NCBI GenBank assembly: GCA_028283245.1
Contig: JAPYNU010000086.1
Location: forward strand, 8-64,007
DNA: 64,000 nt
Direction of reading: 5' to 3'
From: Candidatus Aldehydirespirator catecholifindens
GTDB lineage: Bacteria > Actinomycetota > Acidimicrobiia > Acidimicrobiales > Aldehydirespiratoraceae
The notes below the pieces were generated by a model. It worked only from the letters and a program-made list of their open reading frames with translations. It was not told the origin of the DNA and made no database searches. Positions 13,438 to 39,171 of this stretch are shown here, piece after piece (position 1 is the first letter of the stretch; each line of letters starts with the position of its first letter). A program made the translations under genes and the position numbers.

Positions 13438-13438
13438 T

Positions 13439-22946: not shown

Positions 22947-25057
22947 GGCTTGGTTAATTCGTGGCGACGCGCGACGAAGCGGGCTTTGATTTTCTTTTTC
23001 ACTGCCAAGCCCGGCACGGGCAACATATTCATCTTGAGTTCGGATTTCTTGTTGACTAGTTGCATTTCAAAGTAATGCGACAACATCAGGGTGTTCATTA
23101 CTAATTGCAGAGAAACTATACGCTGACCAAGACAGCTATGAGTACCGAGCCCAAACGGGGAATATCCGGTGCCGAGATGTTCTTTACGCGGAGGCTTGTA
23201 CCTGTCAATGTCAAACTTCATTGGCTCTGGGAATTGATCGTTTAGATAGTGAGTAACTGTTGTCAGGACCCAAACTCGATCTCCTACCGATATTTGATGT
23301 CCACCGATAAAGCAGCTATTTATCGCATGGCGGAATGATGAGAATATCGTGGGATACATGCGCAAAGTTTCAGTGACCACCCGTTGAGTTGTATCAGTTG
23401 CTGGGCCGGTGAAAGCTTCAAAATCAACCTTGCCGTCTTTACCGAATACTGCATCAGCCTCGGCGGTGACTTGCTGATAAACTTCAGGATGCGACAGCAT
23501 TGAGTACATTACGGTCGACATCTGCTGCCCAAGGTATATGGAATTTATTAAGGCGGTAACAACCGCTAAGCTCATGTTGGCCTGGGGCATCAGTTGGCGG
23601 TCGTTGGTGTTAAAGCTCAACAGATCGTCAGTGTAATCTCTGGAGCAACCGGCTCGTTGAGCAGCTGTGTGACCAGCCAAGACCTGATCCACAAGCTCAT
23701 TAAGGCGTTTCGTTCGACGTCGCATCGCAGGAGTTTTAAGCATGAAGTTGGGGAAGTAGCCAGCAATATGCGTTATCATAATTCGTTTTATAAGTTTACC
23801 CAAATCATCAAAGCTGTCCTGAGTGTCAGTATTCAACAGCAACGGCGACATCTGCGAGTTACATACCCGATGTCCAAGTTCTATTAACGGAACCTCACTG
23901 CCGATTTCCAGGTTGGAGATATAGTCGCGACCATAATTGAGCATTTCATCAGATCGTTCCACGAGTCTAGTGCGCGAAAAAGATGGTTGAAAAGACTTGC
24001 GAGACTTGAAGTGATCGGCACCATCAAGCGAGGACACAAATCCCCTTGCACCTAAAGCTTCCTCAAAATTATCAAGATAATGCCGTGATGACAGGTACAG
24101 TCGACCGTAGCGGTGAACCCACGCATTGACTTCGGGACCGGCTACGCAGGTAAAATCCTGCTGAAATGGCTGCCTGAGCTTGAAGACAGGGCCGTATTTG
24201 TTGTAAAGCTCAGTGAAGAACGCCGGAATATTACCATTGCGAGCGTTTGAGCTGCGGATCATGTCAATCAGCTTCACCGTGGGAATCTGCTTGGAGAGCG
24301 AGGAGGAGATCGACGGTGCCGCGGCGATGTTCTCGCGAACTGCTTCGGCAATGGCGCGCCCGATCAGGTCCATCTTGCAGATGTCAGCCACCCTCTGCTC
24401 AGTTGCTTCGTCAAGCTCGAAGATGAAATGCATCACATCGCAAACATCAATGAGGCAGATGATGATCACATCCACAGGCGACGGGATCTCGTCGGTGAAG
24501 ATAGCTCTGCTGATGCGAGTCTTGACGAACTCCGTGCTGATTGGATCAACATCACTTACCTGGCCTTGGGCACCTTTAGCGGATACGTCTGCTTCACCCC
24601 AGACGATCTTCGCTAGCGACCAGAAGTCCCCGTCGTGATGCCGCAGAATGTTCATCTCAGTCAAACGCTCAAGAGTCGCATCAATAATCGGCTCAGCCCG
24701 CGGCAAAAGTTTCTCAATCCAATACTGAGCGTTGTACTGGCCGGTTGAAGCTCCGATCTTCTCAAGCAGAGGATCCAGCGTCGGGTCACCAGTCGGTGTG
24801 CCATCCACGAAGATCAACGAGTTGGTATCGGTATCGATGCGGCCCCGCAGCGACAGTTCAGCCAGAGCACCGCCAACAACGGCGCAGTTGAGATTCCAGC
24901 CCGGCACCTGGCGGAAATAGCCGGACTCCTCATTAAGAAGGCTCAACACCAGCTCATCAATCAGCGTCAAGGGACTGTTGTGATCGGCGCTTACAGTTGC
25001 AACTTCGCGATCAATAACCGTCATCACGAATCCTTTCGTCTTTGCTGTCGCCAGCAT
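22943..25057 (-). CDS. GPP34 (GOLPH3-like) domain fused to cytochrome P450
   Basis: N-terminal ~230 aa carry GPP34 motifs (LIDELVLSLLNEESGYF, GGALAELSLRGRI, DGTPTGDPTLDPLLEKI). C-terminal ~450 aa carry P450 ExxR (ETLRMYP) and the Cys-ligand loop FGLGTHSCLGQRI. By eye it is clearly more AT-rich than its neighbours. Confidence 0.75.
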   Translation of the reverse strand: MLATAKTKGFVMTVIDREVATVSADHNSPLTLIDELVLSLLNEESGYFRQVPGWNLNCAVVGGALAELSLRGRIDTDTNSLIFVDGTPTGDPTLDPLLEKIGASTGQYNAQYWIEKLLPRAEPIIDATLERLTEMNILRHHDGDFWSLAKIVWGEADVSAKGAQGQVSDVDPISTEFVKTRISRAIFTDEIPSPVDVIIICLIDVCDVMHFIFELDEATEQRVADICKMDLIGRAIAEAVRENIAAAPSISSSLSKQIPTVKLIDMIRSSNARNGNIPAFFTELYNKYGPVFKLRQPFQQDFTCVAGPEVNAWVHRYGRLYLSSRHYLDNFEEALGARGFVSSLDGADHFKSRKSFQPSFSRTRLVERSDEMLNYGRDYISNLEIGSEVPLIELGHRVCNSQMSPLLLNTDTQDSFDDLGKLIKRIMITHIAGYFPNFMLKTPAMRRRTKRLNELVDQVLAGHTAAQRAGCSRDYTDDLLSFNTNDRQLMPQANMSLAVVTALINSIYLGQQMSTVMYSMLSHPEVYQQVTAEADAVFGKDGKVDFEAFTGPATDTTQRVVTETLRMYPTIFSSFRHAINSCFIGGHQISVGDRVWVLTTVTHYLNDQFPEPMKFDIDRYKPPRKEHLGTGYSPFGLGTHSCLGQRIVSLQLVMNTLMLSHYFEMQLVNKKSELKMNMLPVPGLAVKKKIKARFVARRHELTKP

Positions 25058-25186
25058 TTCAGCCTAGCTTGGTGCCCGACAGTGTAGCGCTAACCGGCGA
25101 TACCGCTATCTAGCGCAGGCCGCTATTTCTCAAGCTGGCGCAGCCTCGCACAGCGCTGTGGGCGCTGTCATGCCTGAGCAAGTCGG

Positions 25187-28100
25187 ATGTCGCCGTATGC
25201 TCGACGAGTGCCTGCTGGCCCGCAGATCACGCTGGAGGACCTGAAGCCCGACGTTCAGGTGATCGGCATCCACTTCGACGGGCCGGTGACGGTTGTACGG
25301 GCGCAATGGCACGGCTCACAAGCAGTGACTCTCACGTATCGCTGCGAAGACGGCACCGTGCAAGAGCAGATGATCTTCCGAGACGACGAGCCGAACCTCA
25401 ACGTTCTGACACCATCGCAACAGCGGTTCAGCTTCCGCGGCGACGGGCGGCTCTTTCGGCTTGCTGCGGAGGCGCGACGTATCCGTTTGGCTCATCTGTT
25501 TGACCCATATCTGGCTTTGTCATCAAGTCAGGTAAGACCGCTTCCTCATCAGATTGAGGCTGTCTACGGCTCATTGCTGCCTCGACGGCCGCTGCGTTTC
25601 CTGCTCGCTGATGATCCTGGTGCTGGCAAGACGATCATGGCTGGTCTCTACATCAAAGAGATGATGATCCGCGGCGCGTTGGAACGCTGCCTAGTGGTCG
25701 CGCCGGGCAGCTTGAGCGTCCAATGGCAAGAGGAACTGCAAGACAAGTTCGGTTTGACCTTCGAGATCGTCACAAAGCAAGACCTTGACAGCATCAACAC
25801 CGTGAACTTGTTCGAGCGCAAACCGCTACTAATAGCCCGCATTGACCAGCTCGCTCGCCGCCAAGAACAGCTGGGTCCGGCGTTGCGGCAGGCCGAGTGG
25901 GATCTGGTGGTGGTTGATGAAGCCCACCGGATGGCCGCGCATTTCTGGGGTGACGAGATCCGCAAGACGATGCGCTATCAACTCGGCGAAACGCTTGGTG
26001 CCTCAGCAGAGCATTTGCTGCTGATGACGGCGACACCGCATAACGGCAAAGAAGAGGACTTTCAGCTGTTTTGTGCCTTGCTTGACAGCGATCAGTTCGC
26101 TGGACGTTTCCGCGACGGGGTGAACGTTGCTGACCGGTCGTCGTTGATGCGTCGCATGGTGAAGGAGCGTCTGCTGACGTTCGAAGGGAGACCGCTGTTC
26201 CCAGAACGTCGTTCGGTGACGGCCGTCTATGAACTCTCTCCCGATGAGATGATCCTTTACGGCGAGGTCTCTGAGTATGTGCGAGATCAAATGAACGCCG
26301 CTGATCGGCTGCGCGATGCTGGCGACGGACGGCGCGGCAACACTGTCGGCTTCGCGTTGACCATCCTGCAGCGCCGTCTGGCATCATCTCCCGAAGCGAT
26401 TTACCAGTCACTGCGGCGTCGCAGGCAGCGTCTTGAGCAGCGAGTCGCTGACGAACTTCGCTCGGCGCGTGCGGCGCTTAGAGGGCTGACAGGCCAACAA
26501 GAACGCTTGTCTCGTTTGCTGCAAGCCGACCCGGCCGAAATACGGGCCTCTTCGGGCGAGCAAGACGAAAACCCAAATAATCAGAACCCTCTCGCGGGTT
26601 TAGACATGGACACCTACGACGAACTCGACTCTGAGGAGCAAGCCGAGATCGATGCCGAGGTGGTTGACGCAGCCACAGCTGCCGAGACGATCTCAGAGTT
26701 GGAGAGCGAGATCGTCACGCTCAAACGACTCCAGAAAATGGCTTTCGATCTGCGTAAAGCGGGAACTGACACCAAATGGCAGCAGCTTTCTGACACATTG
26801 TCTGATGCCCCCGAGATGCATACGCCAGCCGGAGACCGTCGCAAACTGATCGTTTTCACCGAGCATCGCGACACTCTCAACTATCTAGTTGACCGGTTAC
26901 GCACTTTTTTCGGCAGCCACGATGCAGTAGTGCATATCTCTGGTAGCACTCGCAGAGACGACCGCCGGACGGTGCAGCACCGCTTCACTCAGGATCCGGG
27001 CGTGCTGGTGCTGGTTGCCACCGACGCAGCTGGCGAAGGCATCAACTTGCAGCAGGCGCACTTGGTGGTGAACTACGACCTGCCTTGGAACCCGAACCGC
27101 ATTGAGCAGCGCTTCGGGCGGGTTCATCGCATAGGCCAAACTGAGGTCTGCCACATGTGGAATCTGGTGGCCGACAACACTCGCGAGGCTCAGGTGTATC
27201 TAAGGCTTCTTGAAAAGATTGAAGAAATGTGCAAAGCCTTCGACGGTCAGGTCTATGACGTTGTCGGTGAGGTGCTTTCAGGTCGCGAACTCCGGCAGCT
27301 ACTGCTTGATGCCATTCGCTACGGAGACCGTCCCGAGGTGCGCCGCCGCCTTGATCAGGTCATCGACACTGACGTGCCCGAACGGGTGACTGCTGCTATC
27401 AAAGACCCTGTGCTAGCGGCTGACACCATCGGCTACTCCGAGGTGGACCGCATCCGACGCGACATGGACGAAGCTGCGCTGCGACGTATTCAGCCTCACT
27501 ACATTCAAGCTTTTTTTGATGCCGCTTTCACACAACTGGAAGGACGACTGCGGGAGCGGGAGCCGGGCCGCTATCAGATTGACCGGGTGCCGCTAGTGGT
27601 ACGCAACCGAAGCCGCGCGATAGGTAGAGGCACCGGCCCGCCACTACTTGATCGCTACTCTCGGATCACTTTCGACAAAGACCTCACCGAGGTTAAAGGC
27701 TCACCTGACGCGGATCTGGTGGCCCCAGGCCACCGGCTGCTTGACACTGTGGTTGATCTCACGTTTGAGCATCATGGCCATCACATCACCTCAGGCGTGA
27801 TTTTGGCCGACGACTCCGACGACGGAACCGAAGCTCGGGTGATGGTGATGCTGGAGCACGAAGTGGTCGACGCAAGACCTACCCGAAGCACGTCGCACAC
27901 AACTGTCAGTCGCCGCTTCGAGTTTGTGGAGATCACTCGACACGGTGACGCATCTAGTTCTTCGCATGCCCGCTACCTCGACTACCGCCCGTTGGCAGAG
28001 CACGAGCAGGAAGCCGCCGAAGCGCTCCTTGATGACGGCTGGCTGAAGCGTGACCTGACTAGGCAAAGCTTGGACTATGCCATTGAGGTGTCGGTTCCTG

Positions 28101-28870
28101 ACCATCTCGCCGAGGTGAGAGCCCGCACGCTGCGTCGAGTGTCCACCACCCGCAAAGTGGTGCATGAACGCTTGACCACCGAGATCAACCATTGGGATAA
28201 TCGGGCTGCACAACTCCAACTTGATGTGGAAGCGGGTGCCACGCCTCGCATGAACGTTGACAGTGCCCGTCGCCGAGCCGAGGAATACGCTCGTCGTTTG
28301 AAACTCCGGCTCGCCGAGCTAGATCGAGAGAGCAAATTGAAAGCATTGCCGCCCCGTGTGGTTGGTGGCGCGTTGGTGCTGCCCGCTGGCCTGCTGAGTC
28401 GCCTGCGCGGTGAGAGACCCGAGATCGACAACGCTGCCGACACCTTGTCGAAGCGCGAAGTTGAACGGCGTGCCATTAGTGCTGTGATTCGCTGCGAAGG
28501 CGAAGCGGGCTGGCTGACAGAAGACCTCAACGAGACGCAACCAAACCATCCCGGTTACGACATTCTCTCAACACGCCGCGACAGCAGCAACAGCACCGTG
28601 TTGCAGTATCGCTATATCGAAGTCAAGGGTCGGGTCAGCGGTGCCGACGTGGTTACGGTATCTCGCAACGAGATCCTCACCAGCCTTAACGAGCCCGACC
28701 GCTGGCTGCTAGCCCTAGTTGAAGTGCGTCCAACCGGCGGTGAAGAAGTCCGTTATCTGCACCGCCCCTTCGAGGATGCCAGCCGTGACTTCCTCTTCGA
28801 CACGACCAGTGTCAACTTCGATTGGGATGCCCTGTGGGCCCGTGGACTACACCCGCAAGACTGCACCTAA
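25187..28870 (+). CDS. SNF2-family helicase with C-terminal DUF3883 (restriction-endonuclease-like) domain
   Basis: Motif I LLADDPGAGKTIMAG, motif II VVVDEAHRM, motif III LLMTATPHNG. C-lobe ATDAAGEGINLQ and WNPNRIEQRFGRVHRIGQ. Tail carries GYDIL...YIEVKGR. Confidence 0.85.
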   Translation: MSPYARRVPAGPQITLEDLKPDVQVIGIHFDGPVTVVRAQWHGSQAVTLTYRCEDGTVQEQMIFRDDEPNLNVLTPSQQRFSFRGDGRLFRLAAEARRIRLAHLFDPYLALSSSQVRPLPHQIEAVYGSLLPRRPLRFLLADDPGAGKTIMAGLYIKEMMIRGALERCLVVAPGSLSVQWQEELQDKFGLTFEIVTKQDLDSINTVNLFERKPLLIARIDQLARRQEQLGPALRQAEWDLVVVDEAHRMAAHFWGDEIRKTMRYQLGETLGASAEHLLLMTATPHNGKEEDFQLFCALLDSDQFAGRFRDGVNVADRSSLMRRMVKERLLTFEGRPLFPERRSVTAVYELSPDEMILYGEVSEYVRDQMNAADRLRDAGDGRRGNTVGFALTILQRRLASSPEAIYQSLRRRRQRLEQRVADELRSARAALRGLTGQQERLSRLLQADPAEIRASSGEQDENPNNQNPLAGLDMDTYDELDSEEQAEIDAEVVDAATAAETISELESEIVTLKRLQKMAFDLRKAGTDTKWQQLSDTLSDAPEMHTPAGDRRKLIVFTEHRDTLNYLVDRLRTFFGSHDAVVHISGSTRRDDRRTVQHRFTQDPGVLVLVATDAAGEGINLQQAHLVVNYDLPWNPNRIEQRFGRVHRIGQTEVCHMWNLVADNTREAQVYLRLLEKIEEMCKAFDGQVYDVVGEVLSGRELRQLLLDAIRYGDRPEVRRRLDQVIDTDVPERVTAAIKDPVLAADTIGYSEVDRIRRDMDEAALRRIQPHYIQAFFDAAFTQLEGRLREREPGRYQIDRVPLVVRNRSRAIGRGTGPPLLDRYSRITFDKDLTEVKGSPDADLVAPGHRLLDTVVDLTFEHHGHHITSGVILADDSDDGTEARVMVMLEHEVVDARPTRSTSHTTVSRRFEFVEITRHGDASSSSHARYLDYRPLAEHEQEAAEALLDDGWLKRDLTRQSLDYAIEVSVPDHLAEVRARTLRRVSTTRKVVHERLTTEINHWDNRAAQLQLDVEAGATPRMNVDSARRRAEEYARRLKLRLAELDRESKLKALPPRVVGGALVLPAGLLSRLRGERPEIDNAADTLSKREVERRAISAVIRCEGEAGWLTEDLNETQPNHPGYDILSTRRDSSNSTVLQYRYIEVKGRVSGADVVTVSRNEILTSLNEPDRWLLALVEVRPTGGEEVRYLHRPFEDASRDFLFDTTSVNFDWDALWARGLHPQDCT

Positions 28871-28920
28871 CCAGCGATGAGGTTGGCAGCAAGTCCGCAG
28901 GTCGCGTAACGTTGAGATGC

Positions 28921-29073
28921 ATGAACGAACAGTTGAGTTCTCGCAGCACTTTCTTGTTTGCGCGTCCTCAAGCGCTTCACGGTGGCACCCGTCTGTTTGA
29001 CTTCTTCGGCACCTACGAAAACTACAACACTTCACCGCCACCACAAGAAGCTAATTTGCTCGCAGTGTTTTAG
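28921..29073 (+). CDS. small hypothetical ORF (50 aa) ending at an in-frame TAG; the frame stays open for 32 more codons
   Basis: The ATG at 28921 gives MNEQLSSRSTFLFARPQALHGGTRLFDFFGTYENYNTSPPPQEANLLAVF. TAG is at 29071-29073, and the same frame continues DWLAVEDDTKKVLASHKLL... to the TGA at 29170-29172. Confidence 0.25.
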   Translation: MNEQLSSRSTFLFARPQALHGGTRLFDFFGTYENYNTSPPPQEANLLAVF

Positions 29074-29248
29074 GACTGGCTCGCCGTTGAGGACGACACA
29101 AAGAAGGTACTGGCCTCCCACAAGCTGCTTCCGTCGAATGAGTTCACTGGACTCCGAAGGCCAACTTCCTGACCATCAGCATCACAACGCTGAAGCCGAC
29201 GATTAATACCACGGTTAGTTGCGCTGAAGGAGTCAATCGGGGCAACCG

Positions 29249-32017
29249 ATGACAGAACGTAAGAAGCTCATAGAGGTGGCGTTGCCGCTTGATGCGATCA
29301 ACGCCGCAGCAGCTAGAGAGAAGTCAATCTTCTTCGGTCATCCCTCTGCGCTGCACCTGTGGTGGTCACGCAAACCCCTTGCGGCGTGTCGGGCGGTGCT
29401 CTTAGCGCAGTTGCTGGACGATCCCTCAGCATACCCAGAAATTTTTTCTACCGAAACTGAGCAGCGCCGCGAGCGTGAGCGTCTGTTTGAGCTCATCAAA
29501 AACTATGCGAAATGGGAGACCTCTGGCAAGGAGGAGTTCTTAACGCCGCTACGCCACGAGATCATGCGATCCTGCGACGGCGAAACTCCGACCGTGCTTG
29601 ACCCTTTCGCAGGTGGAGGAGCTATCCCGCTTGAAGCGCAACGTCTCGGCCTCACAGCTCAAGCTTCGGATCTGAATCCGGTGGCTGTGCTCATCAACAA
29701 GGCTTTGATCGAAATTCCGCCAAGGTTCGCTGGACTTAAGCCGATACATCCCGAAGCCGAAATGAGAACCAGATGGCAGGGCGCAGAAGGACTGGCCGAG
29801 GATGTTCGCCGCTACGGGCGCTGGATGCGTGAGCGCGCTTTCGAGCGAATCGGTCATCTCTACCCCAAAGCAGAGTTACCTGTTGAACACGGTGGCATGT
29901 CGGCCAGCGTCATTGCCTGGATTTGGACTCGCACCATTGCTTGCGCCAACCCAGCTTGCGGTATTGAGATGCCTCTGACGGGCTCGTGGCGACTCTCAAC
30001 CAAGACGGGACGAGAGGCCTGGGTTCAGCCAACAACTCAGGATGTCTCGGGATCACGATGTGTCACATTTGAGGTGCGCCAAAGCAACGAAGAACCGCCG
30101 GATCCTCCTAAGTTCGGAAAGGCCAAGTTCCGCTGCACAAGCTGCGGCGAAACTACGCCCGACAACTACGTCAAAGCTGAAGCTCAAGCTGGCCGTATGA
30201 GTGCCAAGATGATGGCGGTTGTTGCCGCGGGCGACCGAAAGCGGGTCTATCTGGATGCTGATGAGCTTCAAGTGCAGGCATCCCAGGCAGCGCCACCACT
30301 GGACGCACCCTCGGCAGATATGGCTCACGACCCGCGTGCCATCATACCGCCGAACTGGGGCATGCAGAAATGGACTGATCTCTTCACCGCCCGGCAACTG
30401 ACAGCGGTGAGCGTGTTTTGTGACCTTGTCGCCGAAGCACGAGCGGTGATCCTTGAGGAGGCACAGGCCGCAGGACTTGATGACGACGAGGTGCCTTTGA
30501 GAGATGCAGGTGCCGGAGCGCGCGCCTACGCCGAAGCAGTTTCGGTGTACTTGGCTTTCGCAGTGTCAAAGTGTGCCGACTACTGGTCCACAATATGCGT
30601 CTGGGACAGGAAGGGTGAGAAGATGGGGCATACCTTTCCGCAGCAGACCTTGCAGATGAGTTGGGATTTTGCGGAGGCTAACCCGTTCAGTTCTTCCACT
30701 GGCAACTGGCAATCAATGCTGAACCGAGTAGCCGAGAGCCTGTCACGCCTGCCCGCTGAGATGCCTGGCATTGTTACTACATGCGATGCCAGTGACGTGG
30801 AGGCATCCTCGGCGGTGCTGTCGACCGATCCGCCGTATTACGACAACATCGGATACTCCGACCTTTCGGACTTCTTCTACATCTGGTTGAGGCGCTCGCT
30901 CCGCGACGTGTTCCCAGACGTTTGTTCCACACTGCTCGCTCCTAAATCACAGGAGTTGATAGCAGTGCCGCATCGCCACGATGGAGACAAGACTGCCGCA
31001 AACGCTCACTTCGAGCACGGTCTTAAGTCAGTCTTCACAGCGTTACGGCAAGGTGCTAATAGGCGTTTCCCAATGGCCGTCTACTATGCCTTCAAACAGT
31101 CTGAGAGTTCTGCCGAAGGCACTGCCTCGACCGGCTGGTCAACGATGCTCGAAGGTCTCATAGCCGCAGGATGGATGGTTACCGCCACTCAGCCGCTACG
31201 CACGGAACGCTCCAGCCGTGTCCGCTCTTTGGACAGCAACGCTTTGGCATCATCGATCGTGCTCGCCTGTAGGCCTCGACCTGAGAGCGCAAGTATCATC
31301 GACCGGCGGGGACTGCTATCAGAGTTGCGCAACGAGATGCCTCAACCAATCCGAGAGTTGCAGGCCTCAGCTGTTGCACCGGTCGACCTGCGGCAAGCAG
31401 CAATCGGGCCCGGCATGGCGGTTTTCTCGAAGTACTCAAGGGTTGTTGAGGCCGACGGGACTCCCATGCGGGTGCATACCGCTCTGGGACTGATCAACCA
31501 AGTGCTTGAATCTCTTCTAGGCGAAGCCGATGCCGACCTAGATCCCGAGACTCGCTGGGCGGTTGCCTGGTTTTCGCAACACTTCGAAGACGAAGGCCCC
31601 TACGGCATCGCAGAACAACTCGCAGTGTCCATGAACGTGGCGGTCGAATCCCTAGCAAAGTCTGGGATCATCACAGCGGGGGGAGGCAAGGTACGTCTGC
31701 TTCCAAGTGCCGAGATGGCTGCTGACTGGGAACCCCGAGAAGGCGACACTACGTCGATCTGGAAGGGCACTCAGCATTTGGTGCGCCGACTCGAAGAGGG
31801 TGAGGCCGCCACAGGAGCATTACTGGCTCAACTTGATATGCGAGCCGATGCTTGCAGAGCGCTCGCTTACCGTCTCTACACCATCTGTGAGAAGGCTCAG
31901 CCTCACCTCGCTGGGCCGTATAACGCTCTGGCTGCCTCTTGGCCTGAGATTCGCCGCCATTCGACTCAAACAGAACAACCGCTCCAAGCGACAGAAGCCC
32001 CTCTCTTCAGCTCATGA
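29249..32017 (+). CDS. DUF1156-type DNA methyltransferase (amino-MTase with Zn ribbon)
   Basis: DUF1156 N-terminus ALPLDAINAAAAREKSIFFGHPSALHLWWSRKPLAACRAV. SAM motif I DPFAGGGAIPLEA. Cys pairs CANPAC...CTSCG. Catalytic motif IV STDPPYYDNIGYSDLSDFFYIW. Confidence 0.85.
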   Translation: MTERKKLIEVALPLDAINAAAAREKSIFFGHPSALHLWWSRKPLAACRAVLLAQLLDDPSAYPEIFSTETEQRRERERLFELIKNYAKWETSGKEEFLTPLRHEIMRSCDGETPTVLDPFAGGGAIPLEAQRLGLTAQASDLNPVAVLINKALIEIPPRFAGLKPIHPEAEMRTRWQGAEGLAEDVRRYGRWMRERAFERIGHLYPKAELPVEHGGMSASVIAWIWTRTIACANPACGIEMPLTGSWRLSTKTGREAWVQPTTQDVSGSRCVTFEVRQSNEEPPDPPKFGKAKFRCTSCGETTPDNYVKAEAQAGRMSAKMMAVVAAGDRKRVYLDADELQVQASQAAPPLDAPSADMAHDPRAIIPPNWGMQKWTDLFTARQLTAVSVFCDLVAEARAVILEEAQAAGLDDDEVPLRDAGAGARAYAEAVSVYLAFAVSKCADYWSTICVWDRKGEKMGHTFPQQTLQMSWDFAEANPFSSSTGNWQSMLNRVAESLSRLPAEMPGIVTTCDASDVEASSAVLSTDPPYYDNIGYSDLSDFFYIWLRRSLRDVFPDVCSTLLAPKSQELIAVPHRHDGDKTAANAHFEHGLKSVFTALRQGANRRFPMAVYYAFKQSESSAEGTASTGWSTMLEGLIAAGWMVTATQPLRTERSSRVRSLDSNALASSIVLACRPRPESASIIDRRGLLSELRNEMPQPIRELQASAVAPVDLRQAAIGPGMAVFSKYSRVVEADGTPMRVHTALGLINQVLESLLGEADADLDPETRWAVAWFSQHFEDEGPYGIAEQLAVSMNVAVESLAKSGIITAGGGKVRLLPSAEMAADWEPREGDTTSIWKGTQHLVRRLEEGEAATGALLAQLDMRADACRALAYRLYTICEKAQPHLAGPYNALAASWPEIRRHSTQTEQPLQATEAPLFSS

Positions 32018-32283
32018 CTCGCCGGTGTCAGTGGATAGATGTAGCGTGTAGTCAGACCACATTTCAAAAAGGATCACCACTAATGACTTACGAACTGCCT
32101 TTCATTCCCGAGGCACGAAAAGACGACGAGACCCTGCAAGACCGCGTCGCCCGAGCCCGCAAAGCCCGCGAAGATGCCGCCGCGCGAGTAGCAGAGCGCT
32201 ACGCCAACATTAAGCCCGACGAGCGCAGATGGCGAACCCGAGAGCCGCTGATAATACCGTCGGAGCCTCTGCGTGTCCTCTGA
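32014..32283 (+). CDS. small hypothetical protein (66-89 aa), translationally coupled within the module
   Basis: The ATG at 32014 overlaps the MTase TGA (ATGA). An alternative ATG at 32084 has aagga upstream. The ORF's 3' end overlaps the next GTG start by 11 nt. Charged, Arg/Glu-rich; no family recognised. Confidence 0.4.
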   Translation: MTRRCQWIDVACSQTTFQKGSPLMTYELPFIPEARKDDETLQDRVARARKAREDAAARVAERYANIKPDERRWRTREPLIIPSEPLRVL

Positions 32284-33147
32284 GACTCATACTTCCAAGC
32301 TTGAAACTCCCACCCAAAGTCCTCTTTTCCGCGCCGTTGAGTCAGACCGCTATGGCCGTCAGGCAGGCATACGAAACTATGAGGAGTTCACCGGACGCTC
32401 ATTGATTGTTTTCTATGGCAAGATCAACCACAGCGTCATAACTCCATTCGCCGATGCTGTTGGAGATGTTGGGCAGGGTCAACCTCTTGACCTAATGCTT
32501 ACATCGCCAGGTGGCGATGCTGAGACGGCTGTCAGACTTGCGAGAATGTGTCACGCAGAGCGTCAGGACTTCCGGGTCATAGTTCCCGACACGGCCGCAT
32601 CGGCGGCGACGCTGCTTGCGCTGGCCGCTGAATCCGTCGTGATGAGCAACTCGTCAGCCCTCGGTCCGATAGATCCCCAAGTGCCAATGGCGACAAGGCG
32701 CACCTACATTCCTGCAAAGGACATCTTGGAAATCGTTGACGACCTAGAGACTCGTACTACTACCAATCCAGAAGCATTTGAGCTTTACGCTGCTTTGTTG
32801 GCTGATATTGACGCTGTGGTCTATCAGATTGCTAAGGCTGCTATTGGCGAACGACGGAACTGGTGCCTGAAGTGCTGAGTTTGCGTCAAAATCCTCCCTC
32901 ACTAGAGGAAACCGCCAAAATCGCAAGGGGTCTACAGAGCAGCCATGCGATGCATTCGGCAGCTATAGGCTACGAGCAAGCCAAGTCTCTGGGAATACCG
33001 GCTGCATACTTGTCACCTCAGTCGCCAGAATGGGATGCCTTATGGCGACTCCACACCCTCTACATCGTTTTGCTGGGATTGCGCTTCGAGGAGGCTCTAA
33101 TTGAAGGGCGCAGAGTCTCATTTCGTTTTTTGCCGGACGCTCTCTAA
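32273..33147 (+). pseudogene. Clp-fold serine protease (SDH / S49-like family), split by a frameshift
   Basis: ORF 32273..32878 carries the ClpP-fold core (LMLTSPGGDAETAVRLARM, VPDTAASAATLLALAAE). ORF 32863..33147, in another frame, looks like the family's C-terminal region (HSAAIGYEQAKSLGIPAAYL). Together they total about 290 aa. The frame change appears to be near 32845-32865. Confidence 0.55.
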
Positions 33148-33174
33148 CTTTCGCTACGACACGAATTTCTGGCG

Positions 33175-36100
33175 ATGGCTGAGGTTAGTAATCGGGCTCG
33201 GGTGGGGGATGCGTTTGATCTGTTGGCGCAATGCTTGAAACCGTTCGTGTCAAAGCACATGACAAGAACAGTCAGCCGTGGACAGGACTGGGCTGAAGTT
33301 TTTGCAGCCAGTGCTAGGCCACCCATTGGCGACTACTCCACTGACGATCCGGTCTTTCTGCTGCGGGTGATCGGCGACTGCTGGCGCGACACTTTTGATC
33401 GTCAACTGCCGCGAGGTACCCGCAATCTGGTCTTCACACTGCGCGACAAGCGCAACGAATGGGCGCACAACCGCCAGATCAAACTCCACGATGCCCTTTA
33501 CACACTCAGTGGCATTGTCACACTCGTCGAAGCGGTGGACTCCGCAGCCGCCGAACCGGTGCGTGCCATGCTCGACGATTTGCGTCTCACGCATTTCGAG
33601 CGTTCAAGCAGCAGCGACCGCTCACCGACCCTCAACGTCTTTGATGCTCCCAGGGCCGGGCTTAAACCATGGCGCGAGGTGATCCATCCTCACCCCGATG
33701 TCCATTCGTCGGATTTCGGGGCCGCCGCTTTCGCTGCCGACCTTGAGATGGTGCGGCGCGGTGAAGGTGCTGTCGAGTACGCCGATCCCAAGCTCTTCTT
33801 TGAACGCAGCTATCTGACAGCCGGGCTACGCGACCTTCTAACCCTCGCGGTCGAGCGGGTTGCCGGTCAAGGCGGACAGCCTGTGATTAGCTGTCAAACC
33901 AACTTCGGTGGCGGCAAAACGCACAGCCTTATCGCCCTCTATCACCTTCTATCGGGGATCCCGGTAACGGATCTTCCCGAAGAAGTGGCGGCCCTAGTGC
34001 GCGACGCTGGCGTGAACGAACTACCGAAGGTCAACCGTGCGGTGATAGTAGGCAACCGCTTCGGCGCAGGCGAGACACACCCCAAAACCAACGGCATCAC
34101 GATCAACACGATCTGGGGTGAAATCGCTTGGCAGCTAGGTGGTGCCGATGCCTACGAACTCATTGTTGACAGCGACCGCAATCGTACCAACCCCGGCGAT
34201 GCCATCCGTGACGTTCTCACCGTGTGCTCCCCGTGCCTAGTGCTCATCGACGAATGGGTCGCTTATGCACGCGAACTTTATGAGAAACCCGACCTGCCAG
34301 GCGGCAGCTTCGATTCTCAGTTCAGCTTTGCACAGACCCTTTCAGAGGCGGTCAAAGGCACCCCTGGAGCGATTTTTGTGGTGTCGATCCCCGCCTCCGA
34401 GGGCACAGAAACAAGCGAAGAAGCTGCTGCGTCCAGCCTCGAAGTCGGCGGAGTAGCCGGGAGAGAGGCACTAAAACGTCTCACCAACGTGACCAGTCGC
34501 CTAGCGGAGACATGGCAGCCCGCTACCGGCGACGAGAGCTATGAGATCGTTCGCAGACGGCTGTTTCAGCCGCTGTCGGAGTCCGCTGTCGGCGACCGTG
34601 ATAGCACCGCAGAAGCTTTCGGGAAGCTTTACCGGTCGCAGCGCTCGGAGTTCCCTGCAGAATGCTCAGAGATCGCCTACGAGGCACGCATCAAAGCCGC
34701 ATATCCGATCCATCCCGAGGTTTTTGACCGACTCTACCAAGACTGGTCGGCCATTGACCGCTTCCAGCGCACCCGCGGCGTGCTGCGCCTCATGGCCGCA
34801 ACCATCGACTCGTTGTTACACAGCGAAGATAGCTCTCCGCTGATTATGCCTTGCTCAATCCCACTAGGAGATCCACGAGTCACCAGCGAACTCGCTGGCA
34901 GGCTCCCCGACTACTGGCACCCAGTGATTGATGCAGATGTTGACGGCCACAACTCCTCATCTTTCAAGATCGATCGCGAGACACCTCACCTAGGAGCGCT
35001 GCATGCCACTCGGCGGGTGGCTCGCACCATATTCGTCGGTGCTACCCCCAACGTCGGTGCCACGAACCAAGGTTTGGAGGTGCGCCGCGTGCGGCTCGGT
35101 TCGACTTTCGCGGGCGACAAATCCGGACCGATCTCCGACGCACTTAACCGGCTGGCAGCCACAGCCCCGCACCTATACGTTGACCGTGACCGTTACTGGT
35201 TCGACCGGCGACAAAACGTTACCCGCACCGCCCGCGATGATGCTGAGCGCCTACTTGATGGCGACCGTCACGAAGTCCGTGAAGAAATCGTGCAGCGACT
35301 GCGGACCCAGCCTCGCACTAACAGCGAGTTCGCCAGCGTTCACTATGCGCCAGCCAGCGGAGCAGACGTAGCCGACGAAGCCCGCGCTCGTCTAGTCGTT
35401 CTCGAACCCGATGCCGCCCATATCGCCAAATCTTCAGAATCACCGGCGCTGGCATTGGCGAGAGAGATTCTCAACATCAGAGGTTCGGGCCCGCGCCAGT
35501 ATCGCAACATGCTTCTATTCGCAGCAGCGGAGCAACGCGGTACGGAAGCTCTGGAGCAGGCGGTTGCGGAGTATTTGGCATGGTCGGGCATCTGCGAAAG
35601 AAGCGAAGAGTTGAACCTGGACGCTCAGCAGAGTCGCCTGGCTAAAGCCCAGCGCAACCGCGCCGATCAATCCGTGGAACTTCGCATGACTGAGGCTTAC
35701 AAGTTCGTTCTCGTCCCTCGTCAGGATGATCCAAGTGACGAGATCAGTTTCGATGTGGTCACCTTGAACTCAGACGGGTCTCTGGTTGAAAGAGTCAGCC
35801 AAAAGATGATCAACGACGGTGCTCTGGCTACGCGTTTCCCGCCAGTGCTTTTGCGCCAACGTCTTGATGGTGTGCTGCAAAGCCGTTGGCGTGACGGTCA
35901 TGTGCAACTGCTGACACTCTGGGAAGATTTTGCTCGCTACGTCTATCTGCCGCGACTGCAAGATCAGTCGGTCTTGACCGCAACCGTGACTGCGGGGCCG
36001 GTCGGGTTCGCCTGGACCGCAGAAGGTTTCGCTGTGGCGACAGACTTCGATGATGCCACCGGCAGATACTTGGGACTAGCAGCGCAGGGAATCTCTCCGA

Positions 36101-36498
36101 ATGCGGTGACTCCGACCTCGCTGGTAGTGCAACCCGATCGTGCGCTGGAACAGATTGAGGCCGAGAAGCCCCAGATCGACAACACCGTTGAACCCGACAT
36201 CTCCGACGTGGCGAAGCCTGCGCCCGCCGACATTGAGGCACCAGCGACTGCTCGTGTGAAGCTCACCACGTTCCGGGGTTCGGTCAAGCTTGACCCGGCC
36301 CGACCCACCAAAGCGTTCACAACGATTAACGCAGAGATTCTCACCCACCTCCTCAACCAGATCGACACTGAGGCCGAAGTGCGACTGGAAGTTGAGATCT
36401 ACAACGCTGAAGGGTTCTCCGAGCACATCATCAGAACAGTCAACGAGAACACCCGAACCCTTCAATTCGAAGAAGGTAGCGGCTTCTCGCAGAGCTAA
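33175..36498 (+). CDS. DUF499 (BrxC/PglY-like) P-loop ATPase with N-terminal Swt1-like HEPN domain
   Basis: HEPN Rx4H motif RNEWAH at 33451-33468. Walker A NFGGGKTHSLIALYHL and Walker B CLVLIDEWVAY. 1107 aa, the typical size for DUF499 proteins. Confidence 0.85.
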   Translation: MAEVSNRARVGDAFDLLAQCLKPFVSKHMTRTVSRGQDWAEVFAASARPPIGDYSTDDPVFLLRVIGDCWRDTFDRQLPRGTRNLVFTLRDKRNEWAHNRQIKLHDALYTLSGIVTLVEAVDSAAAEPVRAMLDDLRLTHFERSSSSDRSPTLNVFDAPRAGLKPWREVIHPHPDVHSSDFGAAAFAADLEMVRRGEGAVEYADPKLFFERSYLTAGLRDLLTLAVERVAGQGGQPVISCQTNFGGGKTHSLIALYHLLSGIPVTDLPEEVAALVRDAGVNELPKVNRAVIVGNRFGAGETHPKTNGITINTIWGEIAWQLGGADAYELIVDSDRNRTNPGDAIRDVLTVCSPCLVLIDEWVAYARELYEKPDLPGGSFDSQFSFAQTLSEAVKGTPGAIFVVSIPASEGTETSEEAAASSLEVGGVAGREALKRLTNVTSRLAETWQPATGDESYEIVRRRLFQPLSESAVGDRDSTAEAFGKLYRSQRSEFPAECSEIAYEARIKAAYPIHPEVFDRLYQDWSAIDRFQRTRGVLRLMAATIDSLLHSEDSSPLIMPCSIPLGDPRVTSELAGRLPDYWHPVIDADVDGHNSSSFKIDRETPHLGALHATRRVARTIFVGATPNVGATNQGLEVRRVRLGSTFAGDKSGPISDALNRLAATAPHLYVDRDRYWFDRRQNVTRTARDDAERLLDGDRHEVREEIVQRLRTQPRTNSEFASVHYAPASGADVADEARARLVVLEPDAAHIAKSSESPALALAREILNIRGSGPRQYRNMLLFAAAEQRGTEALEQAVAEYLAWSGICERSEELNLDAQQSRLAKAQRNRADQSVELRMTEAYKFVLVPRQDDPSDEISFDVVTLNSDGSLVERVSQKMINDGALATRFPPVLLRQRLDGVLQSRWRDGHVQLLTLWEDFARYVYLPRLQDQSVLTATVTAGPVGFAWTAEGFAVATDFDDATGRYLGLAAQGISPNAVTPTSLVVQPDRALEQIEAEKPQIDNTVEPDISDVAKPAPADIEAPATARVKLTTFRGSVKLDPARPTKAFTTINAEILTHLLNQIDTEAEVRLEVEIYNAEGFSEHIIRTVNENTRTLQFEEGSGFSQS

Positions 36499-36607
36499 CC
36501 GTCGGGGTAGAGTTCGGGGTCTAGCCTTGAGCTTTGGCATTGCAATCCGCTGCTAGGGAAACGGCTGTTGCCGGTAGACTGGCTGGTTCAGCGGCTAGTG
36601 CCAGCAG

Positions 36608-36680
36608 GCCCCCATCGTCCAGCGGCCTAGGACGCCGGCCTTTCACGCCGGAAACACGGGTTCAAATCCCGTTGGGGGTG
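36608..36680 (+). tRNA. tRNA-Glu (anticodon TTC)
   Basis: Manual cloverleaf: acceptor GCCCCCA/TGGGGGT, D arm GTCC-AGCGGCCTA-GGAC, anticodon arm CCGGC-CTTTCAC-GCCGG, T arm ACGGG-TTCAAAT-CCCGT. No encoded CCA. Confidence 0.9.
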
Positions 36681-36759
36681 CAAATTTGCATATCCGCTGG
36701 GCCGGGATACCCAGCCCTACAGTATGCTCTCAATCTGACATCAGTATTGGACCCAACCG

Positions 36760-37020
36760 ATGGCAACAATCAACGTGCGGCAACTTGATGACGAAGTCGT
36801 TAACCGCCTAAAGCTCCGTGCCTCGTCGCATAGTCGCTCCCTTGAAGGTGAAGTGCGACACATTCTCGAATGTGTCGCCGACGACGACATGGCGGCAAAG
36901 CGCGCCAGGTTCTTGGAGGCTTCACGCCGACTGCGGGAAAAGACCAAAGGTCGCAAGCACACCCCGGCGGAAGTGCTGATCCGCGCAGACCGCGACCGCG
37001 GCCACCGCGATGACTTCTGA
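36760..37020 (+). CDS. vapB: ribbon-helix-helix antitoxin (FitA/VapB-like)
   Basis: 86 aa starting MATINVRQLDDEVVNRLKLRASSHSRSLEGEVRHILE. Its stop overlaps the PIN gene start (TGATG). Confidence 0.75.
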   Translation: MATINVRQLDDEVVNRLKLRASSHSRSLEGEVRHILECVADDDMAAKRARFLEASRRLREKTKGRKHTPAEVLIRADRDRGHRDDF

Positions 37021-37448
37021 TGCGCCTAGTTGTCGACGCGAGTGTGGCAGTTAAGTGGTTGGTCGCCGAAGAAAATACCGACATTGCCGACCATCTGGCC
37101 GCACACGAGCAGGAGCTTCACGCGCCGCGCCTGATGGCTTCCGAGACTGCCAATGCTCTTTGGCGCAAGGCGCTAATGGGTCAGATTGAGCGCACCGAAG
37201 CCAGCACCGCCATGAGGCTTCTTACCGACATGCCGGTGAACTGGAACGACGATGAGGCCGTCGGCGCAGACGCTGTTCGTTTGGCGTTGGCCCTCGACCA
37301 CCCGGTTTACGACTGCGTATATCTCGCGCTCGCTCACCGTATCGGCGGAGTAGTAGTGACAGCAGACCGTCGATTCAAGACAGCAGTGGCATCGACTGAG
37401 CACAGCGGATCAGTTCTGACACTGGCCGATTACACACAAACGCAATGA
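37020..37448 (+). CDS. vapC: PIN-domain ribonuclease toxin VapC
   Basis: 142 aa. N-terminal LVVDASVAVKW, with conserved acidic residues (D at position 6 and an ...YDCVYLALA...TADRRF pattern). Confidence 0.85.
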   Translation: MRLVVDASVAVKWLVAEENTDIADHLAAHEQELHAPRLMASETANALWRKALMGQIERTEASTAMRLLTDMPVNWNDDEAVGADAVRLALALDHPVYDCVYLALAHRIGGVVVTADRRFKTAVASTEHSGSVLTLADYTQTQ

Positions 37449-37478
37449 GCAATACAAAGATTTCGATCTGAAGGCGTA

Positions 37479-37545
37479 TCAAATCAGAGTTGGGGGGTGC
37501 GAGCAGTCCAGCGGTTCGCTAACGTTTCAAGATCCGCACGCTCGT
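37479..37545 (+). repeat. tRNA-Glu-derived fragments (3'-end-like tcaaatc..gttggggggtgc, then D-arm-like gtccagcgg...tttca)
   Basis: 37479-37500 tcaaatcagagttggggggtgc compares with the tRNA-Glu 3' end tcaaatcccgttgggggtgc. 37507-37515 gtccagcgg is identical to the tRNA-Glu D arm. Confidence 0.5.
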
Positions 37546-37554
37546 CGTGCGCTA

Positions 37555-37629
37555 GGTCCTGTAGATCAGTCTGGAGTGATCGCCACCCTGTCAAGGTGGA
37601 GGCCGCGGGTTCAAATCCCGTCAGGACCG
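37555..37629 (+). tRNA. tRNA-Asp (anticodon GTC)
   Basis: Manual cloverleaf: acceptor GGTCCTG/CAGGACC, anticodon arm CCACC-CTGTCAA-GGTGG, T arm GCGGG-TTCAAAT-CCCGT. Confidence 0.9.
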
Positions 37630-37661
37630 CGTTGCTGGCCCGCTAGGGCTGTCAACTACCC

Positions 37662-37734
37662 GGTCGGGTAGCTCAGTTGGCAGAGCGTCCGCCTGAAAAG
37701 CGGAAGGTCCGCGGATCGACGCCGCGCCCGACCA
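37662..37734 (+). tRNA. tRNA-Phe (anticodon GAA)
   Basis: Manual cloverleaf: acceptor GGTCGGG/CCCGACC, D arm GCTC-AGTTGGCA-GAGC, anticodon arm TCCGC-CTGAAAA-GCGGA, T arm CGCGG-ATCGACG-CCGCG. The T loop starts with A rather than T. Confidence 0.88.
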
Positions 37735-37824
37735 CAACGCAACGAGACCAGCAGCGCTGCGCCTCGCATCCCTAGCCGCGGCATCCCATCCCTGCCGCGG
37801 TGATGACTTGCTTAGACTGCCGCC

Positions 37825-39171
37825 ATGACCTGTGACACGCCGGACACGTCCGCCGACCCAGACGCAGCAGGCGCGCCGCTCACGACTGCCAAACCGCCGC
37901 CAGCGCAAGAACCGGATGCCAGCAACCCGATCCACAACGCTTTCTGGACACGGCATCGCAGTGAGATCGAAGTCGACCTCCAAACACTGCGCTCAGAGCC
38001 GCTCACTTTCTTCCCCGGCTTCGCTTTCGCTGGGGCGCTAGCGGACATTCACACACCGGGTGCCTGGGTCGTCACGCGTCATGCGACGATCCTTGAGATC
38101 TCACGCAAATCTGAGATCTTCTCTTCGGCCCGGGGGGTAACCGTCAACGACCTCACTGTTGAGTTCAACGAGTACTTCAACTCAATCATCACCATGGACG
38201 ACCCGCGCCATGCCCGGCTGCGGCGGCTCGTATCGGCCGGATTCACGCCCAGGATGCTGGCACAGCTCGACGACTCGATAACCGGCCAAGCCCGGATGAT
38301 CGTCGACGAAATCTGCGAACGGGGCAGCTGCGACTTCGTCACCGACGTGGCCGCTCGCCTACCGCTGCGAATCGTGTGCGATCTCATGGGCATCCCGGCC
38401 TCGTATCACGACTTCGCGTTCGATCGGTCGAACGTGATCCTCGGCGCAGCCGACGAAGAGTACGTCCCCGACCTCGACGGCATCACCGCCATTCTCACCG
38501 CGGGCGAGGATTTGACCCGGCTCATGGACGATGTGGCCGACTCCAAAGTCGGCAGCGACGACGAGGACCTGACCAGCGTGCTTGTCAACGCCGAAGTCGA
38601 CGGCGAGCGACTGACCCGCTCCGAGCTGTCCAGCTTCTTCATCCTGCTGCTGGTGGCTGGAAACGAGACGACTCGCAACTCGATCAGCTGGGCTCTCGTC
38701 TACCTCACCGACCATCCCGATCAGCGCCGAATCTGGGCCGCCGACTTCGAGAGCGTCGCCACCACCGCAGTTGAAGAGATCGTGCGTATCGCCAGCCCGG
38801 TCACTTACATGCGCCGCACCGCGCTGCGCGACACCACCCTTGAGGGTGTCACGATCAGCGAGGGCGACATGGTGACCATGAACTACCTGAGCGCCAACCG
38901 CGACGAGTCAGTGTTCGATGATCCGCTCGCCTTTAATGTGCGTCGCGACCCGAACCCGCATGTCGGCTTCGGAGGCCCCGGCCCGCATTTCTGCCTAGGG
39001 GCGCATTTGGCACGCCGCCAGATCAAGGTGATGTACCGCGAGTTGCTCTCGCGCCTTGGCGACATAGAAGCCGTCGGCGAGCCCGAGCTGCTCTCGTCGG
39101 CGTTCATACACGGCATCAAACACCTGCCCGCCGAGTTCACTGCGTCCAAGCCTTTGGGAACAGTCGCCTAA
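37825..39171 (+). CDS. cytochrome P450 (canonical)
   Basis: I-helix LLVAGNETTRN, ExxR EEIVRIASP, haem loop FGGPGPHFCLGAHLA. Confidence 0.9.
   Translation: MTCDTPDTSADPDAAGAPLTTAKPPPAQEPDASNPIHNAFWTRHRSEIEVDLQTLRSEPLTFFPGFAFAGALADIHTPGAWVVTRHATILEISRKSEIFSSARGVTVNDLTVEFNEYFNSIITMDDPRHARLRRLVSAGFTPRMLAQLDDSITGQARMIVDEICERGSCDFVTDVAARLPLRIVCDLMGIPASYHDFAFDRSNVILGAADEEYVPDLDGITAILTAGEDLTRLMDDVADSKVGSDDEDLTSVLVNAEVDGERLTRSELSSFFILLLVAGNETTRNSISWALVYLTDHPDQRRIWAADFESVATTAVEEIVRIASPVTYMRRTALRDTTLEGVTISEGDMVTMNYLSANRDESVFDDPLAFNVRRDPNPHVGFGGPGPHFCLGAHLARRQIKVMYRELLSRLGDIEAVGEPELLSSAFIHGIKHLPAEFTASKPLGTVA

Follow-up and report, generated by a model that had tools for sequence, protein, structure and literature searches.

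The question raised by this locus is whether a helicase, a methylase and an ATPase gene with a protease gene set among them form a new kind of defence system, or whether a known system has taken up foreign genes. The locus lies at positions 25187–36498 of a 64,000-nucleotide (nt) stretch of DNA, hereafter the window, from contig JAPYNU010000086.1 of Candidatus Aldehydirespirator catecholifindens (GCA_028283245.1). This is an uncultured Acidimicrobiia bacterium whose nearest relatives are metagenome-assembled genomes (MAGs) with sponge-derived names. A first-pass annotation of the sequence had described a helicase, methylase and ATPase module with an embedded protease, and every open reading frame (ORF) that it listed was found where it had been placed. 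It is likely that the locus is an intact operon of the Hma (“helicase, methylase, ATPase”) type, also termed a Type-1 BR operon, with a HEPN domain fused to its ATPase, and that it carries an autonomous, mobile protease cassette as a passenger with an inferred function. The Hma core is already known. The sole undescribed part is a pair of genes between hmaB and hmaC, encoding a 66-amino acid (aa) protein and an SDH-type Clp-fold serine protease; within this known system the passenger is uncharacterized and probably autonomous.

Hma was named by Payne et al. in 2021, with 1,638 operons in 26 phyla (PMC8565338). A 2026 survey has renamed Hma loci “Type-1 BR (BREX-related) systems”, BREX being bacteriophage exclusion, and describes HmaC, HmaB and HmaA as homologues of the BrxC, methyltransferase and BrxHII of Type-3 BREX, with PglZ being absent (Nucleic Acids Research 2026, PMC12839542). 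The helicase-methylase-ATPase type named in the first-pass annotation was correct, as both the PADLOC models and Payne et al. (PMC8565338) call this trio Hma. In the window, the module genes at 25187–36498 all lie on the + strand in the order A-B-C, with a 378-nt gap and a 1.16-kb insert among them. At the sequence level, all of the defining features of an Hma / Type-1 BR system were found, namely HmaA, HmaB, HmaC and their clustering on one strand. The Pfam and PADLOC profile searches gave significant matches for DUF1156, DUF499 and SNF2 alike, and the Hma scores of the trio far exceed their PADLOC matches to DrmD, BrxH, DpdE and ZorD.

The hmaA gene (25187–28870, + strand) is intact and encodes a 1227-aa SNF2-family helicase with a C-terminal NOV_C nuclease of the PD-(D/E)xK type. 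It matches the PADLOC HmaA profile PDLC00659 with an E-value of 0 and 1436 bits, residues 14–1224 aligning to profile positions 2–1173 of 1176. The Pfam domains Helicase_C, SNF2-rel_dom, ResIII and NOV_C (4.8e-15) agree with the 1227-aa SNF2 helicase with a DUF3883 tail that had been described; NOV_C is taken to be that tail because a Halomonas HmaA with a NOV_C C-terminus carries the annotation “DUF3883 domain-containing protein” (PMC11232893). The motifs GAGKT, DEAH and QRFGRVHRIGQ were located, together with GYD...IEVK...SRNE in the nuclease tail, and the protein is 80% identical to its counterpart in the related locus L005 over 1225 aa.

The hmaB gene (29249–32017, + strand), likewise intact, encodes a 922-aa DUF1156 amino-methyltransferase that matches the HmaB profile PDLC00660 with an E-value of 0 and 1059 bits (residues 3–911 on profile positions 7–959 of 967). 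The assignment as a DUF1156 methylase with a DPPY motif holds: Pfam detects DUF1156 at 3.4e-28 together with a weak D12-class methyltransferase match, and both motif I (DPFAGGG) and motif IV (DPPY) are present, as are the two Cys pairs CANPAC and CTSC. The intact hmaC gene (33175–36498, + strand) encodes a 1107-aa DUF499 P-loop ATPase, which matches the HmaC profile PDLC00662 at 1.9e-270 and 898 bits (residues 163–1100 on profile positions 3–936 of 941). Its N-terminal HEPN domain, also recognized at first reading, is detected as HEPN_Swt1 (2.4e-19, residues 13–122) and is followed by DUF499 (1e-29). The ATPase motifs GGGKT and LVLIDE and the HEPN motif RNEWAH were located. The ratios of non-synonymous to synonymous substitution rates (dN/dS) against L005 are 0.10 for hmaB and 0.08 for hmaC. 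The Hma operon is intact and, as judged from these two ratios, under purifying selection.

The HEPN fusion had been regarded as a feature not recognized from described versions. This view did not survive, as the 2026 survey credits Anantharaman et al. (2013) with the first report of the fusion and counts it in 1370 of the 2446 taxa with Type-1 BR systems, which makes it the commoner described form (PMC12839542). Since it is common in published systems, it is not novel. Among 80 metagenomic relatives of the window's HmaC (40–63% identity), 79 gave an N-terminal HEPN match, in a sample that leans towards HEPN because the query HmaC itself contained the domain. The cassette is present in none of these 80 more distant HEPN-HmaC loci.

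A scheme for the core may be drawn from the literature on these families. HmaB would methylate adenine in a host-specific motif and so mark self DNA, while HmaC, as a BrxC-like ATPase, may sense or scan DNA. HmaA would then unwind or translocate on foreign DNA and nick or cut it through its PD-(D/E)xK tail, with the HEPN domain as a possible back-up RNase. Experiments support only the HmaA step, and they were made with another organism's protein: the HmaA of Halomonas meridiana alone lowered T4 propagation approximately 100-fold in E. coli in a nickase-dependent manner (Microb Biotechnol 2024, PMC11232893).

The first gene of the nested cassette (32083–32283, + strand) is intact and encodes the 66-aa small protein, which begins MTYELPF. 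The longest ORF here starts at the ATGA at 32014 and the conserved gene at 32083, so the described ATGA link between the small ORF and the methylase stop is probably an artefact of choosing the longest ORF. Exactly 66 aa are found in 40 of the 45 small proteins listed, including that of the window, the product of which is on record. The dN/dS of the small gene ranges from 0.05 to 0.49 over 28 pairs (median about 0.16) and is 0.09 between the window and L002, so that this gene, too, is under purifying selection. AlphaFold2 (AF2) predicts a single long Arg/Ala-rich helix (residues 18–41, RVARARKAREDAAARV) with disordered tails, at a mean predicted local distance difference test score (pLDDT) of 77.5. 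No match to the small protein was found in Pfam, NCBIfam, PHROGs or PADLOC. The small gene runs 11 nt into the start of the protease gene; this overlap had been reported from the window, is real, and recurs in the relatives with called genes (L001–L003 and L084–L086). A profile hidden Markov model of the small protein matches upstream of 28/28 close-clade proteases. Natural fusions of the two proteins were considered and rejected, none of the longer homologues (P0067, P0035 and others) proving to be one.

The second gene (32273–33147, + strand) encodes the SDH-type Clp-fold serine protease (PF01972), and in the window it is split into frames of 201 and 94 aa. The 201-aa ORF (32273–32878) matches SDH_protease PF01972 at 1.2e-15 over profile positions 88–176 of 286 only, and P0002, an intact homologue with 87% identity, does so at 3.3e-18; the respective bit scores of 57.7 and 66.2 compare with a gathering score of 31.3. 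Against the NCBIfam model NF047768, “SDH family Clp fold serine proteinase”, the protease scores 80 bits for a cut-off of 250. The protease is a divergent branch of the PF01972 family. Its Pfam matches are limited to SDH_protease, NfeD1b_N and CLP_protease, and no AAA+ or Lon domain was found in it by Pfam or by way of the AF2 model and Foldseek. The AF2 model of the intact P0002 (alignment A1) has a pLDDT of 88.7, and Foldseek relates it to SppA, ClpP and the archaeal 1510-N at E-values of about 1e-5 and template modelling scores of 0.4–0.65. The predicted nucleophile is the serine of AASAAT at residue 110, which in a profile alignment to the PDB stands opposite the AASAGT serine of 1510-N.

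The description of this gene as a Clp-fold serine protease was right as to the fold; the gene is a single one, split by a 1-nt deletion. Comparison with P0002 places the missing base directly after the ATT codon at 32843–32845. The sequence present is “att ggc gaa cga cgg”; with one extra base (N), the intact form “att Ngg cga acg acg” would encode I-R-R-T-T, for which P0002 has I-R-R-T-R. The 94-aa ORF (32863–33147) is the displaced C-terminus of the protease. The homologues, 371 in number, are 284–290 aa at full length. The residues H227, W253, Y263 and E277, invariant across the family, all lie in this displaced portion, severed from Ser110. As the C-terminus is displaced along with these residues, the split product is predicted to be very likely inactive. 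Programmed -1 frameshifting was rejected, there being no slippery heptamer around 32840–32878 and all homologues being single ORFs. The identical 201-aa product is recorded under NCBI, Logan and JGI/IMG, although these records may share one assembly. Since both fragments show strong purifying selection against relatives (dN/dS 0.05–0.18), the lesion must have arisen very recently or else reflect an error of assembly.

The argument for a passenger draws on the distribution of the cassette, for which 80 loci from species-representative genomes were found by a protease profile search; the neighbours in L174 and L177 were taken from annotated gene records. The pair is kept in all 28/28 close-clade loci in hand. 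Across unrelated contexts, the DNA homology begins about 0–20 nt from the start of the small gene and ends at the protease stop codon. An attC-like or inverted-repeat cassette end was rejected because the spacer from the protease stop to hmaC is 27 nt and the homology ends at the stop codon, leaving no room for such an element. Six other Acidimicrobiia species have the cassette in the hmaB-hmaC slot (L005, L009, L011, L018, L021 and, with extra DNA, L015); in the L005-type operon, all genes are intact. In L006, L008/L084, L012, L016/L085, L017, L023, L086 and others, the cassette has no Hma operon around it. In L084 (Ca. Poriferisodalis), it follows a PLD-SNF2 helicase gene, a methylase gene and a Type_ISP_C gene and precedes a Fic gene. 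It stands beside Schlafen and PIN toxin-antitoxin genes in L174, and beside a MORC-like ATPase gene, a C5-methylase gene and PemK in L177.

Individual loci point to exchange and decay. The cassettes of L009 and L012 are 90% identical, and that of L012 is not in an Hma operon. Between L009 (9049–10894) and L018 (9575–11068), the Hma flanks are 92–94% identical and the cassettes have diverged, with patches of 69–82%; the small ORF of L018 looks disrupted. This contrast suggests allele exchange or rapid divergence at the slot. In the closest relatives of the window's locus, L001–L004 (about 8950–11780 against window 25128–36498), the locus is syntenic and the Hma operon is reduced by large deletions. 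Short fragments of hmaA and hmaC remain, partly fused into a 272-aa ORF, and hmaB is gone, while the 66-aa gene and the 290-aa protease gene are intact. On the evidence of the gene remains, L001–L004 are a mirror image of the window, with the host operon decayed and the passenger intact. Sharp boundaries, independent distribution, exchange and reciprocal decay all argue that the cassette is probably an autonomous mobile passenger and not a working part of Hma.

The 378-nt gap between hmaA and hmaB fits the same picture. The first-pass annotation had noted an interrupted small ORF in it, and the interruption is real, being an in-frame TAG at 29071–29073. The gap holds a second-cassette remnant (28876–29202, + strand) with 81% DNA identity over 328 nt to L170 (6836–7163). 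Its 73-aa gene starts at 28921 and is cut by the CAG-to-TAG nonsense codon, which the intact 72–73-aa homologues (70–83% identity) span. Only the first 22 codons of a 163-aa partner remain, at 29138–29203; this partner looks membrane-spanning from a hydrophobic stretch. Intact pairs of 73-aa and 163-aa genes with a 4-nt overlap are found on related metagenome contigs (L170, 6881–7590; L172, 8001–8710; L173, 3589–4298). Neither gene of this cassette has a match in Pfam or PADLOC, and the gap is not present in L005. The hmaA-hmaB gap is, as read from these remains, a dead remnant of a second, different passenger. Two small foreign two-gene cassettes would thus appear to have landed in the two Hma intergenic slots.

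Insertion at these positions has precedents. The hma locus has been described as an insertion hotspot for defence genes, including AAA_21 and GmrSD between hmaB and hmaC. Auxiliaries of the Schlafen type have been reported for BR systems (PMC12839542). Among the 63 scorable distant HEPN-HmaC loci, HmaB abuts HmaC in 51, and the remaining 12 carry inserts of 1.1–3.6 kb that encode GmrSD-like, AAA_21 with DUF4276, DUF4062-HATPase_c_4 or Schlafen-HATPase_c_4 proteins. These inserts match the published hotspot. A Clp- or SDH-type peptidase goes unmentioned in the two Hma / Type-1 BR papers searched and in the supplementary files searched for PMC12839542. Together with the lack of any matching PADLOC model, this agrees with the earlier remark that the protease and small-ORF insert was not recognized from described versions. 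In L015, 3.7 kb of fragmented ORFs (10856–14593) lie between the cassette and hmaC and may be decayed cargo genes.

As to what the cassette does, the best guess, made by analogy, is a regulated-protease pair in which the small partner may inhibit, feed or target the peptidase. This is drawn from the architecture of the pair, its mobility and its neighbours only. The small, largely disordered protein could act as an inhibitor, pseudo-substrate or adaptor of the protease, in the style of an antitoxin with its toxin or of abortive infection. The layout is that of a type II toxin-antitoxin system, with a coupled small upstream protein, an 11-nt overlap, and a mobile and patchy occurrence in varied contexts; no homology of the cassette to known toxin or antitoxin families was found in Pfam, NCBIfam, PHROGs or PADLOC. 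It is tentatively suggested, as a possibility with the balance of probability against it, that the pair is an undescribed two-gene conflict module that moves as a unit and prefers defence operons and islands, including the hmaB-hmaC hotspot. The defence literature gave nothing relevant when searched for SDH/PF01972 proteases, and the defence models of PADLOC v2 match neither the protease nor the small protein.

Several points weigh against an intact Hma operon with an independent regulated-protease passenger. For the core, overexpression of the Halomonas HmaB left phage sensitivity unchanged (PMC11232893), so that methylation by HmaB and a role for HmaC are to be taken as putative in any Hma system. 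For the passenger, the pairing of a regulator with a protease is an analogy only, and the frameshift could be an assembly error in a gene whose fragments show no relaxed selection. The copies in L085 and L086 lie among ordinary metabolic genes, which is a poor fit to defence or addiction. The cassette occupies the same slot in the same orientation and is closely spaced, with 65 nt between hmaB and the cassette and 27 nt between the cassette and hmaC, and likewise in L005. This slot is shared by at least 7 species, the HmaB proteins of which are only 46–77% identical to that of the window. Such sharing could equally mean long co-inheritance because the cassette serves Hma.

The metabolic settings of L085 and L086 lead to the first alternative, that the pair is a housekeeping or peptide-processing unit of precursor and peptidase, captured in a variable region and without a role in conflict. 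The small protein could indeed be a substrate, and no model from the defence catalogues matches the pair. This explanation is nevertheless considered unlikely, as the pair has a patchy distribution, precise boundaries and exchanged copies. The pair also recurs beside defence and toxin-antitoxin genes, in Hma, L084, L174 and L177, and distant homologues of the protease occur on plasmids and in moron-like positions of temperate phages.

The main rival to the autonomous regulated-protease pair, and one judged quite unlikely, is that the pair is a functional, lineage-specific accessory of Hma in sponge-associated Acidimicrobiia. It would process or turn over an Hma component, or serve as an extra effector triggered by HmaC, the frameshift then being an artefact or a very recent loss. 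The shared slot and orientation (window, L005, L009, L011, L018, L021 and L015) would follow naturally, as would the tight spacing, which suggests co-transcription, and the absence of relaxed selection in the protease fragments. The identities of protease, HmaA and HmaC to the window also fall roughly in parallel, at 80/80/78% in L005 and 60–64/68/65–66% in the L009 group. A related protease stands at the 3′ end of other defence operons, for example the Bub operon in L089. In many genomes, however, the cassette is found without Hma and with sharp boundaries, one copy outside Hma (L012) being 90% identical to one inside. Cassettes have been exchanged between the near-identical Hma operons of L009 and L018. 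Hma is intact with a broken protease in the window, and the cassette is intact with Hma deleted in L001–L004. The 0/80 count in other HEPN-HmaC loci points the same way, in a slot that is a hotspot for unrelated defence genes.

The view taken in the first-pass annotation, of a new six-gene BREX-like architecture with a Clp-fold protease replacing BrxL, is very improbable in spite of the homology of HmaA, HmaB and HmaC to Type-3 BREX components (PMC12839542) and a match of the PADLOC BrxHI/BrxHII models to HmaA at 5.9e-94, because the protein is of a 290-aa stand-alone ClpP/SppA-fold peptidase type with a conserved serine and no ATPase domain, no module ORF matches a PglZ or BrxL model, and the protease, which is broken in the window, is one half of a separable cassette found away from Hma as well.

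With the independent passenger again as the preferred reading, the surroundings of the operon may be described. Directly upstream of hmaA lies a GPP34-P450 fusion gene on the - strand, with the MMPL gene one further out; the MMPL gene named earlier as the neighbour of the module is thus near it and does not directly adjoin it. The MMPL and GPP34-P450 block (window 20523–25057) is movable, being found downstream of Hma in L005 (14634–18955), and MMPL is missing from L002. The guanine-cytosine (GC) fraction of the GPP34-P450 fusion region is about 0.50–0.52, against about 0.58 in its surroundings. From the DUF2017 gene as far as tRNA-Glu the region is variable, and no integrase is seen there. 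The earlier statement that integrases and transposases are absent holds for the flanking genes scanned and for the syntenic annotated relative. Between tRNA-Glu and tRNA-Asp, a FitA-like ribbon-helix-helix antitoxin (86 aa, 1.3e-14) and a PIN toxin (142 aa, 3.5e-12) are encoded at 36760–37448 on the + strand, their ORFs sharing base 37020. This insert of about 810 nt is absent from the syntenic L002 and L005, in which the tRNA genes adjoin. An Rfam scan of 24900–38000 for structured RNA in the gaps gave only three tRNAs. Counts of predicted promoters and terminators over 24900–37900 were not above those in shuffled sequence and carry no information on operon structure.

Beyond the close clade, the protease has a wider family. 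In L024–L066 (Dehalococcoidia, Eremiobacterota and other Actinomycetota; protease identity about 38%), an ORF of 55–90 aa lies upstream at about 9750–10000, and these ORFs share an Arg/Lys-rich motif like “DWxxKIxxAKxxRxxAxxARxGKP”, related to that of the small protein. The two-gene architecture of small ORF and protease may well be old and widespread, as the upstream ORFs suggest. Distant phage homologues (24–28% identity) occur in the Porphyromonas phage BK068108.1 (L088, 3652–4879) and as gene 31 of the Gordonia phage BeeGee (L087). Both are in moron-like positions; one adjoins a HicAB pair and has a 112-aa ORF ahead of it. Among the PHROGs, phrog_11747, a family without assigned function, gives the best match (3.9e-33).

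What the locus offers therefore differs between its parts. The Hma core adds nothing new, being one more copy of a system widespread in 26 phyla, and neither the supposedly novel HEPN fusion nor the BrxL analogy need be retained. The analysis does flag a well-conserved pair of small protein and Clp-fold protease that is uncatalogued and keeps company with defence and toxin-antitoxin genes. Its potential for novelty reaches beyond the window, to the distant clades and to the Bub-linked branch. If the pair is a defence or addiction module, a protease-based two-gene system would be added to the catalogue.

Among known systems, the protease is closest in fold to the S49/ClpP clan (SppA, the 1510-N stomatin-specific protease, ClpP and phage prohead proteases), with which it also shares the aligned nucleophile-serine motif. 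It differs from these in having only 12–17% sequence identity to them, in its helical C-terminal extension of about 100 aa with an invariant His, and in being always paired with a small upstream helical protein and having no membrane or ATPase partner.

A link to Bub operons is provided by a protease of about 30% identity that directly follows the DUF6527 (BubE) gene in L089, on the Methylocystis iwaonis plasmid NZ_AP027146.1 (2593–5870). It is the last gene of an operon for multiubiquitin, E2, ThiF-E1 and DUF6527. Distant homologues also follow a DUF6527 gene in L058, L059 and L060 (about 9535–10870), and the settings of this arrangement include Leifsonia, a Streptomyces plasmid and an Acidimicrobiaceae MAG. 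The serine protease of Bub operons is DUF6527 and not of the SDH type, and an extra SDH-type peptidase is unmentioned in the Bub description (PMC11601596). A conflict role for the pair, if true, might explain the extra peptidase in some Bub operons. The window's cassette differs from Bub in having no ubiquitin-like protein, E1, E2 or DUF6527, and its partner is a 66-aa helix in place of a beta-grasp protein.

The parallel to BREX drawn at first reading stands as far as homology to Type-3 BREX (PMC12839542) and the absence of PglZ are concerned, and fails in placing a protease in the position of BrxL. The trio has homologues in the BrxC, methyltransferase and BrxHII of that system, and the PADLOC BrxH models match HmaA. 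It differs in that the window has no PglZ or BrxA, its methyltransferase has a DUF1156 N-terminus and its helicase has an active nuclease tail. No module ORF matches PglZ or BrxL in Pfam or PADLOC, and the ATPase matches only HmaC and a generic DUF499 model in PADLOC, with no model of BrxC/PglY proper listed. Membership in BREX was rejected because of the absence of PglZ and of a match to BrxC proper. BrxL joins an MCM-type AAA+ ATPase to a Lon-like domain devoid of catalytic residues; the protease has neither an AAA+ nor a Lon domain and is for that reason not a BrxL analogue. DISARM (defence island system associated with restriction-modification) was rejected as well, as HmaA scores 375 bits against the DrmD models and 1436 against the HmaA model, and neither DrmB nor DrmC is among the module ORFs.

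The nearest described form is the HEPN-fused subtype of Type-1 BR, which has the same HEPN-DUF499 ATPase, DUF1156 N6-methyltransferase and helicase with a C-terminal PD-(D/E)xK restriction endonuclease (PMC12839542). The auxiliary and back-up effectors reported for Type-1 BR are of the HNH, HKD, PD-(D/E)xK, TOPRIM/OLD, HEPN, PIN and Schlafen kinds, with no peptidase found among them (PMC12839542). As regards Hma in PADLOC and the Halomonas HmaA, the three proteins match their models end to end, in the order A-B-C on one strand, and the window's HmaA keeps the SNF2 motifs as well as the NOV_C D...ExK...E residues needed against T4 (PMC11232893). The HEPN domain of the window's HmaC differs in lying outside the PADLOC HmaC profile. 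Intergenic insertions have been reported for about two thirds of hma loci, with Septu, PARIS, Ppl, AAA_21 and GmrSD as cargos; in the window, the cargo is the SDH-protease cassette and a dead remnant. The locus is a clear case from nature of the hma intergenic hotspots at work, with a live cassette in one slot and a dead one in the other, and its relatives show that cassettes are exchanged and that host operon and passenger have decayed reciprocally.

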